Shown piece by piece: positions 12,831 through 35,842 of a DNA stretch of 64,000 nucleotides. Origin of the DNA: an uncultured bacterium (GTDB lineage: Bacteria; Cyanobacteriota; Cyanobacteriia; Cyanobacteriales; Xenococcaceae); NCBI GenBank assembly GCA_964562685.1, contig CAZLUP010000003.1:31586-95585 (forward strand). Reading direction: 5' to 3'. The translations under genes were made by a program, and so were the position numbers. The notes below the pieces were generated by a model. That model saw nothing but the letters and a program-made list of their open reading frames with translations. It was not told the origin of the DNA and did not search any database. Numbering within the stretch: position 1 is the first letter of the stretch; each line of letters starts with the position of its first letter.

Positions 12831-13526
12831 ATGACCAATAACAAAATAGTAGTAGCACCATCGATTTTATCGGCTGATTTTAGTCGTTTAGGAGAAGAGA
12901 TTACTAAAGTAGACGAAGCTGGTGCTGATTGGATTCACGTTGATGTTATGGATGGTAGATTTGTTCCTAACATTACCATTGGTCCTCTGATTGTTGATGC
13001 CATTCGCCCCTACACTAAAAAACCTCTCGATGTTCACTTAATGATTGTTGAACCAGAAAAGTACGTTGAAGATTTTGCTAAAGCTGGGGCTGATCTTATT
13101 TCTGTTCACGCAGAACATAATGCTTCTCCTCATTTACACCGTACTTTGTGTCAAATTCGTGAATTAGGTAAACAAGCGGGAGTAGTACTCAATCCCTCTA
13201 CACCTTTAGAATTAATTGAATATGTTCTTCCCGTCTGCGATCTAGTTTTGATCATGAGCGTTAACCCTGGTTTTGGTGGTCAAAGTTTCATCCCTGAAGT
13301 AGTTCCCAAAATCAGCAAATTGCGTCAAATGTGTGACGAAAAAAGTTTAAATCCTTGGATTGAAGTAGATGGTGGACTCAAACCTAATAATACTTGGCAA
13401 GTATTAGAAGCTGGTGCTAATGCGATCGTAGCAGGTTCGGCAGTATTTAAAGCTCCCAGTTATGCTGAAGCAATTGAAGGTATTCGCAACAGTAAGCGTC
13501 CTGAACCAGAATTAGCTACTGTATAA
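12831..13526 (+). CDS. rpe: ribulose-phosphate 3-epimerase
   Basis: Motifs [21 protein letters not shown] and VNPGFGGQ. Confidence 0.95.
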
Positions 13527-13544
13527 CCAATATTTTAAGCTGGA

Positions 13545-14143
13545 AATAAAATTACAGAAAAAACGGGATGTTTGAAAGCCAACTGGCTTTAGCCGTTGGA
13601 TGAAAAACGACTCGGCAACGGGGCGTTGACATGGGCTTGAAGTAAATTCAAGCCACAGCCCCTCCTTAAAAGAGCCTACTAAAGATACAATTTCGATACC
13701 AAATCTTCATAAAATAAAGATGGAGATTGTCGTATACTTTTTCTTGAGTAGTCCAGTCCAAGTCAGTGATTGACTTAGCCGACAATTAAACTAAAGGCAT
13801 AAAGCGAGACTGGTAATAGTGGCGCGAAAAACCACTCTAAAAACGTATGGACTCTAGCCGAGTACCGAAAACCAGTAAAATACAATTTCTTGTAAACAAC
13901 TACTGTAAGGCGGGGCGCGCCTAAACAGAATAATCAACGCTTGGGGAGAGACGACCACTGGGGACATAATGCTAATTTCTGGGTACTTGCACCGTTAGGT
14001 AGGGGTAGTTGGGATTAGGGTGAGGGATACGCCTCCTTTATGTTTTTAAGTCTTGCTCGATGAACCAAGAATCCCACGAATTCTATTCGTGTGGAGCGTC
14101 AAAATAAGATAAGACCGTAGTCTCGTTAGACTTCGGTTTTTTT
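13545..14143 (+). ncRNA. candidate large structured non-coding RNA (class unknown)
   Basis: No ORF of 60 aa or more on either strand. Visibly more G+C than the other spacers. Contains multiple hairpins (e.g. 13620-13662 GGGGC..GGCTTGAA gtaaa TTCAAGCC..GCCCC) and ends in a terminator hairpin plus T7. Confidence 0.3.
14114..14143 (+). terminator. rho-independent terminator
   Basis: ACCGTAGTCT (14114-14123) pairs with AGACTTCGGT (14128-14137). The stem is 10 bp with 1 mismatch and a 4-nt loop, followed by a run of 7 T. Confidence 0.6.
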
Positions 14144-14174
14144 CTATTAATGTTTAGTATCGTTCAATTTCTTT

Positions 14175-14525
14175 ATGTCTTCTAAACGTAAATCTACTAG
14201 CAAAGATGCTACGGTATATCGTGAGTTTGGTAATGAAACTAATAGTGATGCCCTTGAGCGAGGTGTCCCCAATTTGCCTCCTCAACAACAAAATATCAGA
14301 ATTCAAGTAACCAGAGCAGGAAAAAAAGGTAAAACTTTTAGTGTAATCTCTGGTTTTCAACACAATCAAGAGTCTTTAGCTCAATTACTCAAAAAATTAA
14401 AAACTCAATGTGGTACTGGCGGAACAATCAAAGATAATACCGTTGAAATTCAAGGCGACCACAAACAAAAGCTATTAGAGATTCTTAGTCAGTTGGGATA
14501 CAAAGCTAAAATTAGTGGTGGTTAA
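14175..14525 (+). CDS. SUI1/YciH-family translation initiation factor
   Basis: 116 aa. RIQVTRAGKKGKTFSVISGF and LKTQCGTGGT are typical of SUI1. Confidence 0.85.
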   Translation: MSSKRKSTSKDATVYREFGNETNSDALERGVPNLPPQQQNIRIQVTRAGKKGKTFSVISGFQHNQESLAQLLKKLKTQCGTGGTIKDNTVEIQGDHKQKLLEILSQLGYKAKISGG

Positions 14526-31549: not shown

Positions 31550-34500
31550 TTATTTCTGCTTGTTTTTAATCAAAGCTAAAATTTCCTGTTCGTAGCGAGC
31601 AAAAATATTTTGCCAATCATAGGCTTGCTCGACTAATTTACGACCATTGACACTTAATCTTGTCTTTAATTCAAGATCTTTACTAACCTGTATCACCGCT
31701 TCAGCAAATTCTTTGGGAGTATCACGAATTAAAATGTTTACTCCATCAGTTACCTCTAATCCTTCGCAACCAAGACTGGTAGAAATCACTGGTAAACCCA
31801 TTGCCATAGCATGAAGAATTTTGATCCTTGTCCCACTACCCAAACGGATGGGTACAATTGCAATTGAGCAATTCTGAGCTACATCGCTCATATTTTTGGG
31901 ACTAGCGACGATTTCAATATCTGAATAACGAGTAGCTAAAGCTTGAATTTCAGCAGAAGGTTCGCGTCCGGCAATACAGAAAGGAAGCTGAGAATTTTGT
32001 TGACGAATTAGTGGTAAGATCTCTTCAGCAAAGTATAGTACAGCATCAATGTTGGGATAATAAGTCATTGTTCCCATGTACAACATTTTGTGTGCCTGAC
32101 TATGGTTGACAGGAGCAATGTTGCGGGTGTCTATCCCATTCTTAACTACGATCACTTTACTGTTCGGACAACGACTGAGCAATTCTTGTCGATCATCTTC
32201 ACTAACTACAGTAGTTAAAGTAAATTTAGACCAAGTTTTGTTTTCGTAGGCTTCAAGTAATTTAGATTCCCGTTCAGAATCCAAAAACACTCTAACTGCT
32301 TCTACATCTGTTGCAGCCGTTGCAATATCGGACTCGGTAATCGTAGCGCATTGTTTGAGAATTCTTGACTCAATATTATGTTCATTTAAGATTGTCAGAT
32401 GATTTTTGAACAGTTCATGATAGGGAGTAGCAAAAATAAAATCAAATAAAACTGCATCGAACTTAACTTGACTAAATTGTTGGAGAACTTTCCACATATT
32501 CCAAGTTCCCCATTGGTAGATTTGTTTTTGTTGATCGACTCGACGTGGTGCTAAAGGTACACCTAGTTTGACCATAATGGCGCGATCGCAATACTCTTGT
32601 AAATCCTCTTCAATTTGATAATCAGCCTCATCAAAAATAAAAGAAACAACTGTGAGATGATGGCGACTCCCTAAATATTTGATTTCTTCAAACATCCGAA
32701 TCGCTCCCCCTGTATTGGGAGGATAGGGAGGATAGGGAGTAATTAGCAAAATTCTCAGCTGATCATGGCATTCAGTTTGCTTTAACTGCTCACAATAATC
32801 TAGAACTTGCTGCCAACGGTGTAATAATTGCTGAGATTGTTCTCTATTTTCGTAAAATCCTGCAAAATCTGGATTAAGTTCAATTGCTCGACTATAAGCT
32901 GAAATTGCCTCCGCTAAATCCCATCTACCCTTCAGTGCATCACCGTAACCATTGTAATACCAACAGTTATTCGGTTCTAATTGTAAAGCTTGACGATAAC
33001 ATTCGATAGCGCGATCGAGATTAGCCTGTTTTGTCAAAGCATTACCTAATTGAAAATAAGCTTCTGGATAATTAGGATGAAATTCTAAAGCTGTATTTAA
33101 AGCAACAATTGCCAGATCGATCTGATTTTCTCCTAAATATGTTTTAGCCTTGGCGAGAAAAGCTTCAGCTTTTTCTGGTTGTTCTTTTGATGATGCTGGA
33201 AGACTACTAAGTAAAAGTTTTTGATTAAACTGTGCTTGTTCGGGTAATAACTTGGCTAATTGAGTCGATATTTCACGATTTTGAGGCTGGTATTGAAGAG
33301 CTATTTGATAATAAACGATCGCTTTTTCTAGCTGATTCTGTTTAACTAAGGCATTACCTAACTGTAAATACAGTTTGCCATTATCTGGTTGCAGCGCGAT
33401 CGCTTTATAATAATTGTGAAGATTATCAGGATTTAATTGAATCTCGCGCTGATAATAACTCAAAGCTCGATCCGAATCAATTTTAGAGCGATGTCCTAAG
33501 GCATCAGCTAATTTAATTCCTACCGTCGGCAAATCTGGCTTAAGTTCAATGGCTCGACGATAAGCTACTACTGCTTCATCCCATTTACCCAAGTTACTAA
33601 AAATTTCGCCTAAATTATAATAAGCCCAAGGAAAATCGGGGTTTAATTCACTCGCTCTTCTAAAAGCTACCGCAGCCTCTTCCCATCGGCTTAATTGAAC
33701 TAAGGCATCACCTAAATTATTATGTGTCCAACAAAAATCATCTTTGACTTGAATTGCTGCTTGATAAGCAGTAACCGCTTCTTCCCATCGGTATACTTTA
33801 CTCAGTGCATCACCAAGATGATGACAAGCTTCCCAATAATCAGGTTGTAGTTTGATCGCTTGTTGATAACAGATAATAGCATCTTGCCATTGTTTTTGTT
33901 GAGTGAAAACAAATCCAAGACGATAATGATGTAGAGCAATTTGAGAATTATATTGAACCGCCTTGCGATAATATTGAATTGCTTCTTCTAATTTTCCTTT
34001 GCTATGTAAAATTTCTCCTAGATGTAAATAAGCTTCTGCTAAATTAGGAGCGAGTTCCAAAGCACGACGATAACAAGTTATCGCTTCATTTAGTTGATTG
34101 TGTTTGACAAAAGCATTGCCCAATTGCAAATGTTCTTCTGCTTTGACACTGCCCGGCTCCAAACTATAAGCTTGATACCAATATTTAATTGCCTCAGCAG
34201 ATTGATCCGCTTTTTCTAACGCCCTAGCTAAATTACGATAAACACCTGCCAATTGAGGATTTAATGTAATTGCTCGCTGATAACAGTTAATCGCTTCTTG
34301 CCACTGTTGTTTTTGAGCGTATAAACTACCTAAATTTGAGTAAATAGCTGCCGAGTTAGGATTGATTTGAGCTTTTTGTTGATATTGAGCAATCTTTAAA
34401 TCAATAGCTTCAGTAGGAACAGGACTTGTTTGTGTAGTTATTTCCTGTTTAACTGGGGAACGCAAGTCCGTGCCGTCTCCGTTCGGGAACGACTCGGAGT

Positions 34501-35842
34501 TCAACTCCGAGTCGCAAGCCCGAAGTGATTCCCACCCGTTGAACGGCGGAGTACCTGCGATTTGATTGGGAGACTGCAAAACATTCTCACTAGTTGATAG
34601 CAATTTTTGTTGAAGAGGATTATTTCCTTTTAATCTATTTTGATAGTGCCAAGCTTGCTCATAATAAGTAGCAGCTTCTTGCCATCGTCCTAATTGTTCC
34701 AAAACTTGAGCCAATTTTTGATATCCTTCTTGTAAGGAAGGCTCTAATTTAATTCCATAACGATAGTGAATTATTGCTTGTTCTAACTGATCTTCTTCTC
34801 TAAGCCAATCTGCTAACAGAATATGATCTTTGGCCTTCGCTCGCTCTGGCTCTAAGCTCAAAGCTTGATGATGATATTGCCAAAATTTACTCGTTTCTCC
34901 TAACTGTTGATAAACTTTCGCTAGATTTTCATAAGCACCTGCAAATTTGGGGTTAATAATAATCGCTTTTTGATAATATTCAATTGCCTGTTGCCATTGC
35001 TTTTGCCCAGCATATAAACTGCCTAAATTTGCATATACTTCAGCTAAATCTGGTTGTATAGCGATCGCTTTAGCATAATAACCCATTGCTTCGGCAGTTT
35101 TACCACTTCTTTGCAGTGCATTGCCCCAAATTTTATAAGCCTCCGCAGAATTAGGCTCAATTTCCAAGACTCGCTGACAGGCAACTATTGCTTGTTGCCA
35201 TTCTTGGCGATCACAATAAGCTAAAGCCTGTTGTAAATATACTCGAGCAGCTTCTAATCCTAAGCTATTAGCAATTTCAGGTTTGTTAGAATGAGGCTCT
35301 TGATTAGTAGCCGATTTTTCAATTAATTTAAAAGAAAAAGACGATTTTTCTGAAGAATAAACTGCTGATAGCTGTCTATATTGAGGTGAATTAGGATCAA
35401 AGTCAGGAAGTTGTAATTTTGTTGAGAAGCTGCGATGGGAATGCTCTTCTGTTTCGCTGGTGTTGACAGTTAGGTGTGACAAAGAATTTTTTTCCAACTG
35501 TGACAGTGAAGTCTTCCCTTCAGCAGTCCAAGAATTGTTGAGCATAATCGCCTTGCGATAGTGAATCATTGCCTCGGGAATTTTACCGATTTTTTGCAAA
35601 CCTACCGCCAATTTTTGACGAGCCAAACCTAAATCTGGTTCAATTTCTACTGCTTGACGATAAAGCTTAATCGCCTCAGTAAACTTACCTTGTTCCCAAA
35701 GTCGATCTGCTTGATAAATTTTAGTACTGGCTAAATCTGGTAATTTTAAGTAAGAGTTAACATCTGGAGACTTTGGATTAACATTGTCATTATTTTTGAC
35801 AAAAGCAGCAGAATTCAACAAATTTTTCAGACGATCAAACAT
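31550..35842 (-). CDS. giant TPR array fused to a C-terminal GT4-type (GT-B) glycosyltransferase
   Basis: About 1000 aa of TPR units (AEVYANLGSLYAGQKQWQQAIEYYQKAI...). C-terminal LRILLITPYPPYPPNTGGAIRM...GSGTRIKILHAMAMGLPVISTSLGCEGLEV. Confidence 0.8.
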   Translation of the reverse strand: MFDRLKNLLNSAAFVKNNDNVNPKSPDVNSYLKLPDLASTKIYQADRLWEQGKFTEAIKLYRQAVEIEPDLGLARQKLAVGLQKIGKIPEAMIHYRKAIMLNNSWTAEGKTSLSQLEKNSLSHLTVNTSETEEHSHRSFSTKLQLPDFDPNSPQYRQLSAVYSSEKSSFSFKLIEKSATNQEPHSNKPEIANSLGLEAARVYLQQALAYCDRQEWQQAIVACQRVLEIEPNSAEAYKIWGNALQRSGKTAEAMGYYAKAIAIQPDLAEVYANLGSLYAGQKQWQQAIEYYQKAIIINPKFAGAYENLAKVYQQLGETSKFWQYHHQALSLEPERAKAKDHILLADWLREEDQLEQAIIHYRYGIKLEPSLQEGYQKLAQVLEQLGRWQEAATYYEQAWHYQNRLKGNNPLQQKLLSTSENVLQSPNQIAGTPPFNGWESLRACDSELNSESFPNGDGTDLRSPVKQEITTQTSPVPTEAIDLKIAQYQQKAQINPNSAAIYSNLGSLYAQKQQWQEAINCYQRAITLNPQLAGVYRNLARALEKADQSAEAIKYWYQAYSLEPGSVKAEEHLQLGNAFVKHNQLNEAITCYRRALELAPNLAEAYLHLGEILHSKGKLEEAIQYYRKAVQYNSQIALHHYRLGFVFTQQKQWQDAIICYQQAIKLQPDYWEACHHLGDALSKVYRWEEAVTAYQAAIQVKDDFCWTHNNLGDALVQLSRWEEAAVAFRRASELNPDFPWAYYNLGEIFSNLGKWDEAVVAYRRAIELKPDLPTVGIKLADALGHRSKIDSDRALSYYQREIQLNPDNLHNYYKAIALQPDNGKLYLQLGNALVKQNQLEKAIVYYQIALQYQPQNREISTQLAKLLPEQAQFNQKLLLSSLPASSKEQPEKAEAFLAKAKTYLGENQIDLAIVALNTALEFHPNYPEAYFQLGNALTKQANLDRAIECYRQALQLEPNNCWYYNGYGDALKGRWDLAEAISAYSRAIELNPDFAGFYENREQSQQLLHRWQQVLDYCEQLKQTECHDQLRILLITPYPPYPPNTGGAIRMFEEIKYLGSRHHLTVVSFIFDEADYQIEEDLQEYCDRAIMVKLGVPLAPRRVDQQKQIYQWGTWNMWKVLQQFSQVKFDAVLFDFIFATPYHELFKNHLTILNEHNIESRILKQCATITESDIATAATDVEAVRVFLDSERESKLLEAYENKTWSKFTLTTVVSEDDRQELLSRCPNSKVIVVKNGIDTRNIAPVNHSQAHKMLYMGTMTYYPNIDAVLYFAEEILPLIRQQNSQLPFCIAGREPSAEIQALATRYSDIEIVASPKNMSDVAQNCSIAIVPIRLGSGTRIKILHAMAMGLPVISTSLGCEGLEVTDGVNILIRDTPKEFAEAVIQVSKDLELKTRLSVNGRKLVEQAYDWQNIFARYEQEILALIKNKQK
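34470..34557. repeat. GC-rich palindromic mini-element inserted in-frame in the TPR-GT4 gene
   Basis: Termini GTGCCGTCTCC...GGAGTACCTG. Internal perfect hairpin GACTCGGAG ttcaa CTCCGAGTC. Translated as part of the linker peptide GTPPFNGWESLRACDSELNSESFPNGDG. Confidence 0.6.

Follow-up and report, generated by a model that had tools for sequence, protein, structure and literature searches.

A probable protein-less IS200/IS605-type element with an omega-RNA-like gene in the rpe-SUI1 spacer of an uncultured cyanobacterium

The spacer between rpe and a gene for a SUI1/YciH-type translation factor, within the 64,000-nt stretch of DNA analysed here (the window), contains a 547-nt insertion that is missing from the same site in two genomes of the same genus. 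We are confident in interpreting this insertion as a single non-autonomous PATE-like IS200/IS605 element that derives from a TnpB-only insertion sequence (IS) and carries an omega-RNA gene, the RNA of which would be used in trans by a TnpB. Judging from the sequence, the 3' two-thirds of the insert is a gene for a structured RNA of ~360 nt with homology to the omega (right-end) RNAs found in one TnpB clade. The original prediction had described the spacer as a candidate large non-coding RNA. A conserved, structured RNA is indeed present, but it is not a host gene; it is the cargo of the insertion. The first ~190 nt, which had been included in the candidate RNA, are instead the left end of a transposon and a palindromic repeat.

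The spacer (13527-14174) is 648 nt long and has a GC content of 41.0%, with 43.5% in the insert, compared to a window average of 34.6%. Across the 25 other gaps of the window that are at least 150 nt long and lack an ORF, GC content has a mean of 28.1% and a maximum of 35.6%, and the GC enrichment that had been claimed for this spacer was thus confirmed. The longest ORFs in all six frames are 36-39 aa and lie on the minus strand, in agreement with the earlier statement that no ORF reaches 60 aa, and every hairpin listed at that time is present in the sequence, the first and last of them being the left-end and right-end hairpins of the transposon. The GC content, the hairpins, and the missing ORF can all be traced to one mobile insertion in the rpe 3' UTR. 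The folding energy of the spacer as a single sequence is ordinary (z = -0.91), and what supports a structure is therefore covariation among relatives, as opposed to the density of hairpins. An inverted-repeat finder with a minimum length of 10 gave no match in the spacer, because the hairpin arms are short or interrupted.

In a DNA search, none of 40 relatives matched the spacer as a whole; only pieces of it, scattered as dispersed repeats, were found. SUI1 was found in 38 of 41 genomes, and its adjacency to rpe is kept only in two genomes of the same genus (G001 and G002; the window's own genome is G000). In these congeners the rpe-SUI1 spacers are 92 and 102 nt long, and the three-way alignment (A1) resolves the window into this short spacer plus a single 547-nt block. 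In the empty sites AATAAGAT comes straight after TTAC, while in the window TTAC is followed by the insert and then by AATAAGA, with no target duplication, and joining the flank 14103-14122 to TTAC restores the empty-site sequence. Insertion 3' of a specific tetranucleotide, without a target-site duplication or terminal inverted repeats, is what defines IS200/IS605 elements, as are the imperfect subterminal hairpins at both ends and the right end that closes with a cleavage tetranucleotide. Neither a transposase nor an accessory gene lies inside the insert, which makes it non-autonomous, and the element is single-copy in the window's genome. Absence of conservation in relatives had been named in advance as an outcome that would speak against a non-coding RNA; this is what we observed at the locus itself for close relatives, but not for the RNA family, which is conserved elsewhere (see below). 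Coordinates of all features are given in Table 1.

Table 1. Features of the rpe-SUI1 spacer and its neighbours, in window coordinates.
Feature	Position	Strand	Basis
rpe (ribulose-phosphate 3-epimerase), upstream neighbour	12831..13526	+	Pfam PF00834, E = 3e-91
TTAC, target tetranucleotide and left cleavage site; would double as TAM	13552..13555	+	Empty sites; full-length G001 IS also preceded by TTAC
Protein-less IS200/IS605-type element, 547 nt, PATE-like	13556..14102	+	Absent in two congeners; boundaries equal those of full-length IS; no ORF
Left end (LE), 69 nt	13556..13624	+	97% identical to TnpB IS LE, G000:C45:36825-36893
Left subterminal hairpin (IPL), stem AAAGCC/GGCTTT	13575..13590	+	Foot exactly 19 nt from TTAC
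Palindromic hairpin module (stem 13620-13662)	13613..13666	+	~50-nt dispersed copies in many relatives
Hairpin GGGGC/GCCCC plus GGCTTGAA/TTCAAGCC	13620-13662	+	Read from sequence
TATACT, -10-like box, candidate internal promoter	13733..13738	+	Aligns with TGnTATAAT-like boxes, 6-9 nt upstream of conserved RNA start
Omega-RNA-like structured RNA scaffold, 5' end approximate	13745..14102	+	Alignment A4; model R2
5' domain, closing stem CCAGTC (13753-13758)/GACTGG (13808-13813)	13753..13813	+	Helix 1 of alignment A4
Hairpin GTGG-CGCGAAAAA-CCAC	13819..13835	+	Helix 1 of 175-column core
Hairpin with conserved GGGC(A/G) loop	13908..13922	+	Five pairs, four with compensatory changes
ACGCTTGGGGAGA box	13937..13949	+	Nearly invariant in family
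Right subterminal hairpin (IPR), also last omega-RNA stem	14073..14094	+	9 bp, one bulged T; helix 7 covaries
TCAA, right cleavage site, final bases of element	14099..14102	+	GTCAA terminus in 19/19 family members
Flanking DNA, putative guide segment of RNA	14103..14122	+	Directly 3' of right end; length by analogy
Ancestral rpe intrinsic terminator	14112..14143	+	Conserved in empty sites of G001 and G002; seen in RNA fold
SUI1/YciH-type translation factor gene, downstream neighbour	14175..14525	+	Pfam PF01253, E = 4e-18

The source of the element can be recognized from its ends. In G001, a left piece (97% identical) and a right piece matching 14061-14102 (90-93% identical) lie 1.34 kb apart in two places; counted with TTAC, the left piece spans 73 nt (13552-13624) and is 97% identical to G001:C1:2357093-2357165. 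A 1.38-kb element of this genome (L002:1501-2882) has its first 70 nt and last 42 nt in common with the window element and likewise has TTAC in front and GTCAA at its end. Its sole ORF encodes a 405-aa protein with OrfB_IS605 (PF01385) and Cas12f1-like TNB (PF07282) domains, which identify it as TnpB. The same TnpB IS is found in the window's genome, where the LE and the TnpB N-terminus lie at C45:36825-37224 and TnpB residues 85-405 (100% identical to G001) and the right end (RE) at C15:69881-70885; window positions 14061-14102 are 90% identical to this RE. As the ends match the IS of G001 and G000 in the right order and orientation, the insert carries both ends of a TnpB-only IS200/IS605 element without its gene. 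The full-length IS of the window's genome is split over two contig ends (G000:C45:36825-37246 and G000:C15:69881-70938), indicating that the assembly breaks inside the IS. In G001, the full-length IS lies directly downstream of a Phd/YefM-ParE toxin-antitoxin pair (PF02604 and PF05016; L002:907-1444).

The geometry of these ends can be compared to that of IS608 of Helicobacter pylori, which inserts 3' of TTAC without duplication and has TCAA as its CR; there, 19 nt separate TTAC from the left hairpin foot, and the TCAA site lies 10 nt 3' of the right foot (PMC3201880). The window element shares the TTAC target, the TCAA end, and the distance of 19 nt between TTAC and the IPL foot (13575). In the window, 8 nt lead from the right hairpin foot to the end of TCAA, as opposed to 10 nt in IS608, a difference for which the manner of counting may account. 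Unlike IS608, which carries both tnpA and tnpB, the window element has neither gene.

To describe the RNA, we aligned 19 members of the family, which are collinear along an RNA of 300-400 nt and all end in GTCAA. The full-length alignment (A4) contains 34 pairs in 7 helices, with compensatory changes in 22 of the 34, and 91.6% of its cells are paired compared to 75.6% in shuffles. None of 500 shuffles reached any of the five covariation measures, while slid controls pair at 35-43%. Within a 175-column core, 96% of cells are paired (80% when shuffled), and there are 53 double-change cells (18 when shuffled). The stem that closes the 5' domain has changed on both sides at all six of its pairs across the family, with the variants CTAGCA/TGCTAG, CTAACA/TGTTAG, CCGTTA/TAACGG, and CTGGTA/TACCAG, and the GTGG/CCAC pairing of the window and L077 is GAGG/CCTC in most other family members, which is again a compensatory change. 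We built two models, R1 with the window sequence and R2 from the other 18 sequences only. R2 matches the window at 13813-13972 with 142.8 bits (E = 1.7e-30) and has no other match in it. A long-range CCAGU/ACUGG helix proposed by R2 was excluded from the pair counts, because gap placement makes it uncountable on A4. Some members contain additional sequence: L059 and L065 share a GC-rich hairpin of ~52 nt, identical in both, that is inserted into the RNA directly ahead of the AAGG box (A4 columns 378-429), and the element of L073 is broken by a larger insertion, which suggests further nesting of mini-elements.

The relationship of this RNA to TnpB became apparent from a search of 61 relatives with R1, which gave two classes of matches, a strong one of 115-150 bits and a weak one of ~30-50 bits. 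The strong matches are TnpB-less copies, found in G000, G040, G025, and, with eight copies, G027; genomes such as G040 and G027 contain both forms. Of 26 loci that were fetched for R1 matches at or below about 50 bits (mostly 30-50 bits), 19 have a TnpB gene of the G001-IS clade, and the TnpB proteins of the weak-match loci are 52-60% identical to that of the G001 IS. Where coordinates were compared (L096 and L097), the R1 match falls on the last ~180 nt of the tnpB ORF. In autonomous elements the hairpin with the GGGC loop corresponds to the codons for TnpB STVGHTG, ACGCTTGGGGAGA to the YAWGD/E codons of the TnpB C-terminus, and GAACCAAGAATCCC to the NQESP codons, and the tnpB ORF reaches almost to the right end. 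Because the weaker R1 matches fall on tnpB 3' ends, the window RNA is a homologue of omega RNA, and the earlier suggestion that "omega-RNA-like" models be searched pointed in the right direction. As is expected of an omega RNA, the scaffold is homologous to the tnpB 3' end plus right end of autonomous elements and has a conserved secondary structure that is supported by covariation, and its alignment ends at the element boundary in all 19 members, with TTAC preceding the element. When 12-13 TnpB proteins were searched against the insert using tblastn, we recovered only relics of 9-34 aa, and a frameshifted protein gene was rejected for this reason. The tnpB-like relics in the window include INAWGETTT and NQESHEF; the TnpB reading frame is destroyed while the helices are kept. 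Relative to the tnpB-linked loci that were read, TnpB-less copies have an additional hairpin and spacer that separate the AAAAACG box from the GGGC hairpin, as well as the covarying 5' stem and a TGnTATAAT-like box.

TnpB-less copies of the RNA are widespread within the cyanobacteria. We searched 13640-14102 in 401 genomes of the order and found that block 13790-13960 is present at 65-80% identity in ~20 of them, which span many families; some of these matches reach the right end, and the interior is ~72% identical to the best relative found. In the cases examined the block is always intergenic, between unrelated housekeeping genes (neighbours include adenylate cyclase, PGDH, TldD, UreE, an ABC transporter, and an amine oxidase), and TnpB is adjacent in none of them. 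An exact-pattern scan of all prokaryotes, using one genome per species, returned 32 loci, all of them cyanobacterial, including Moorena, Pleurocapsales, Crocosphaera, Richelia, Rivularia, Prochloron, and Synechococcales, and TnpB adjoins none of the 32. An Elainellaceae MAG contains at least 14 copies of the RNA family. Our literature search found no published account of this cyanobacterial RNA family, which also falls outside the coverage of Rfam 15. With R1 and R2, a cyanobacteria-wide family of protein-less IS200/IS605 elements with a long omega-RNA-like gene now has a working covariance model.

The nearest candidate partner of the RNA in this genome, the resident IS on C45 and C15, has just the 3' ~125 nt of the scaffold in common with the window RNA, and the genome may lack the cognate TnpB. 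We identified one intact Y1 TnpA (Y1_Tnp, C36:17116-17481) and ~18 TnpB loci, and searching this 98.5%-complete genome with R1 recovered no TnpB gene with an attached omega-RNA at E <= 1. The window RNA could thus be an orphan in this genome.

Known RNA families do not account for the sequence. At gathering thresholds, Rfam 15 gave only two tRNAs in the whole window, both elsewhere, and ARAGORN detected no tmRNA or tRNA in the spacer; that no match to tmRNA, RNase P, SRP, or a group I/II intron could be made by eye was therefore upheld. We rejected tmRNA, RNase P, SRP, 6S, HEARO, and intron RNAs, none of which scored at the gathering threshold. At E <= 10, region 13450-14250 had only sub-threshold matches at chance level (DUF805 and, on the minus strand, two sRNA models), and seven family and tnpB-linked loci had no match in Rfam. 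The DUF805 RNA motif matched 13814-13885 with 21.4 bits, compared to a gathering threshold of 51.1 (E = 0.26). This match spans the GTGG..CCAC hairpin and the AAAAACG box, and the resemblance is noticeable, but it is probably due to chance.

Several described systems resemble the window element in part. The scaffold of TnpB omega RNA of the ISDra2 type overlaps the tnpB 3' end and the RE, the flank beyond the RE serves as the guide, and the TAM of TnpB systems is the transposon target motif; this omega or right-end RNA was reportedly described by Karvelis and by Altae-Tran in 2021. The window RNA is similar in that its scaffold comes from the tnpB 3' end and RE, its guide position is outside the RE, and its TAM would be the target motif. 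It differs from the ISDra2 type in that the scaffold is detached from any tnpB ORF and is free to change at the former codon level. The HEARO or IscB omega RNA (RF02033) is another large structured RNA of IS200/IS605-family elements that is common in cyanobacteria, often without an ORF. Even at E <= 10 it did not match the window, and its guide is at the 5' end beside the LE, whereas the window RNA, like TnpB RNAs, borders the RE. Meers et al. (2023, PMC10055086) note that PATEs "often encode omega RNAs" and that these must be used in trans, and protein-less PATEs with omega RNAs have been noted for Geobacillus stearothermophilus (PMC10055086). Like PATEs, the window element has no protein gene, has LE and RE hairpins of the IS200/IS605 type, shares its ends with a resident TnpB IS, and has an omega-RNA-like gene that abuts the right end; it would need both TnpA and TnpB in trans. 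Unlike the PATEs of G. stearothermophilus, it is cyanobacterial and belongs to another sequence family, and its RNA departs from those of PATEs in being long (~360 nt), with a covarying 5' domain, an extra hairpin and spacer, and a conserved -10-like box that suggests a promoter of its own.

From these comparisons a mechanism can be proposed. The element would have inserted 3' of TTAC in the rpe 3' UTR, after the stop codon of rpe and ahead of its terminator, by single-strand "peel-and-paste" transposition, and the LE and RE hairpins it has kept are those that a Y1 TnpA transposase would be expected to recognize. Its RNA may be transcribed from the internal -10-like promoter, by read-through from rpe, or both. 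The transcript would cross the right end into the flank from 14103 onward and stop at the rpe terminator, such that its 3' tail would be flanking sequence. A TnpB supplied in trans and loaded with this RNA would then cut the vacant site (TTAC plus flank) after excision, with TTAC-flanked AATAAGATAAGACC... as the predicted guide target, and repair from a sister copy would restore the element. This follows the homing logic of IS605-family elements as set out by Meers et al. (PMC10055086). Transcription, TnpB binding, and a homing function are thus predictions drawn from the architecture of the element.

We considered other explanations for the same observations. The insert could be an inert relic, i.e., a decayed and internally deleted IS in which the RNA-like part is conserved by descent and this copy produces no functional RNA. 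The element is single-copy in this genome, it contains short, scrambled tnpB-like relics such as INAWGETTT and NQESHEF, no TnpB here has an R1-type omega-RNA attached, and the genome contains other relics (C4:113721-113889), all of which fit such a history. However, this copy has kept every covarying helix and scores 143 bits with the model from which it was excluded, its ends are 90-97% identical to those of a live IS, and distant cyanobacterial members maintain pairing through compensatory changes even though the reading frame is destroyed. Pairing that is kept while the reading frame is lost points to selection on the RNA, and we therefore think it unlikely that the element is a relic of this kind. 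At the other extreme, the TnpB-less RNAs could be more than the debris of single IS copies and represent an old, self-propagating RNA-only lineage that spans cyanobacterial orders and has gained a promoter, a covarying 5' domain, and an internal hairpin of its own; it would then be either a guide-RNA hyperparasite that borrows TnpA and TnpB or a scaffold that another effector has taken over. We offer this only tentatively and would not expect it to hold.

Two readings that dispense with a single mobile element have very little in their favour. A large regulatory or catalytic RNA gene of the host that happens to lie between rpe and SUI1 would account for the conserved, covarying structure, for a -10-like box upstream and a terminator downstream, and, as an undescribed RNA, for the lack of an Rfam family. 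This is largely refuted, and we consider it highly improbable: the RNA is missing from the site in both congeners, has exact transposon-like boundaries with TTAC in front and TCAA at the end, is flanked by different genes in every genome, varies from 0 to at least 14 copies per genome, and is homologous to tnpB 3' ends, and the terminator is older than the insertion. The chances are equally slim that the spacer is a pile-up of unrelated short dispersed repeats (MITEs or REP-like units) that lacks the identity of a single element. While our first DNA search matched different segments that varied by genome and copy number, and the palindromic repeat at 13613-13666 does behave independently, the terminal 69 nt and 42 nt correspond to the opposite ends of a single IS and are correctly ordered and oriented, the gain over the empty site is one clean block, and the 3' 360 nt are collinear with whole family members. 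A single IS200/IS605-type element with an omega-RNA gene thus remains our preferred reading.

The element also bears on transcription at this locus. The "clean terminator" that had been assigned to the RNA is present, but its hairpin and T-run (14112-14143) also occur, in conserved form, at the empty sites, and it is therefore the original rpe terminator, which predates the insertion, and not inserted sequence. Its stem (14112-14139) has 12 positions with one T-T mismatch, and the 3' arm enters a run of seven T at 14137-14143; a simple terminator scan of the spacer missed it because of the internal mismatch. A two-hexamer promoter scan found no canonical promoter in the spacer, and the putative internal promoter at 13733-13738 is proposed from the aligned -10-like box. 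The rpe terminator is followed by only 31 nt (14144-14174) before the SUI1 start codon, and the SUI1 promoter must therefore sit upstream of or within the spacer. The insertion has made the rpe 3' UTR 547 nt longer and placed a possible promoter upstream of SUI1, and both the insertion and the -10-like box may affect SUI1 expression.

Protein-less omega-RNA elements are of interest for the sharing of guide RNAs and TnpB nucleases in trans, and they also give rise to false "novel ncRNA" calls when cyanobacterial genomes and transcriptomes are annotated. The element is relevant to work on TnpB, omega RNAs, and cyanobacterial repeats; it does not represent a new class of host RNA.

The left part of the element has a history of its own. 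The palindromic module at 13613-13666 has the layout GGGGC..GGCTTGAA GTAAA TTCAAGCC..GCCCC, with at least 10 copies in G003 and several in G018, G006, and G022, and a homologous palindrome lies in frame inside a tnpB gene (~L100:1078-1122). The module is probably a separate mini-element that lies nested in the PATE. A palindrome elsewhere in the window, at 34470-34557, has another sequence and is not this repeat. The first 190 nt of the window element are unlike those of other family members, and this divergence, together with the possible nested repeat, implies an element with some mosaic history. Two further right ends were observed in the window's genome. A second, degenerate omega-RNA-like right end (L087:1590-1745; G000:C4:113721-113950) scores 38.7 bits with R1 and has kept the GGGC hairpin and the ACGCTTGGGGAGA and GAACCAAGAATCCC boxes, while its terminus is damaged and no TnpB is nearby. 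Another omega-RNA-like right end, at G000:C36:16700-16990 (L088), closes with GGGAGCGTCAA and adjoins the only intact Y1 tnpA (on the opposite strand), near a tnpB gene at C36:17932-18807; this right end, tnpA, and tnpB may be two abutting elements.
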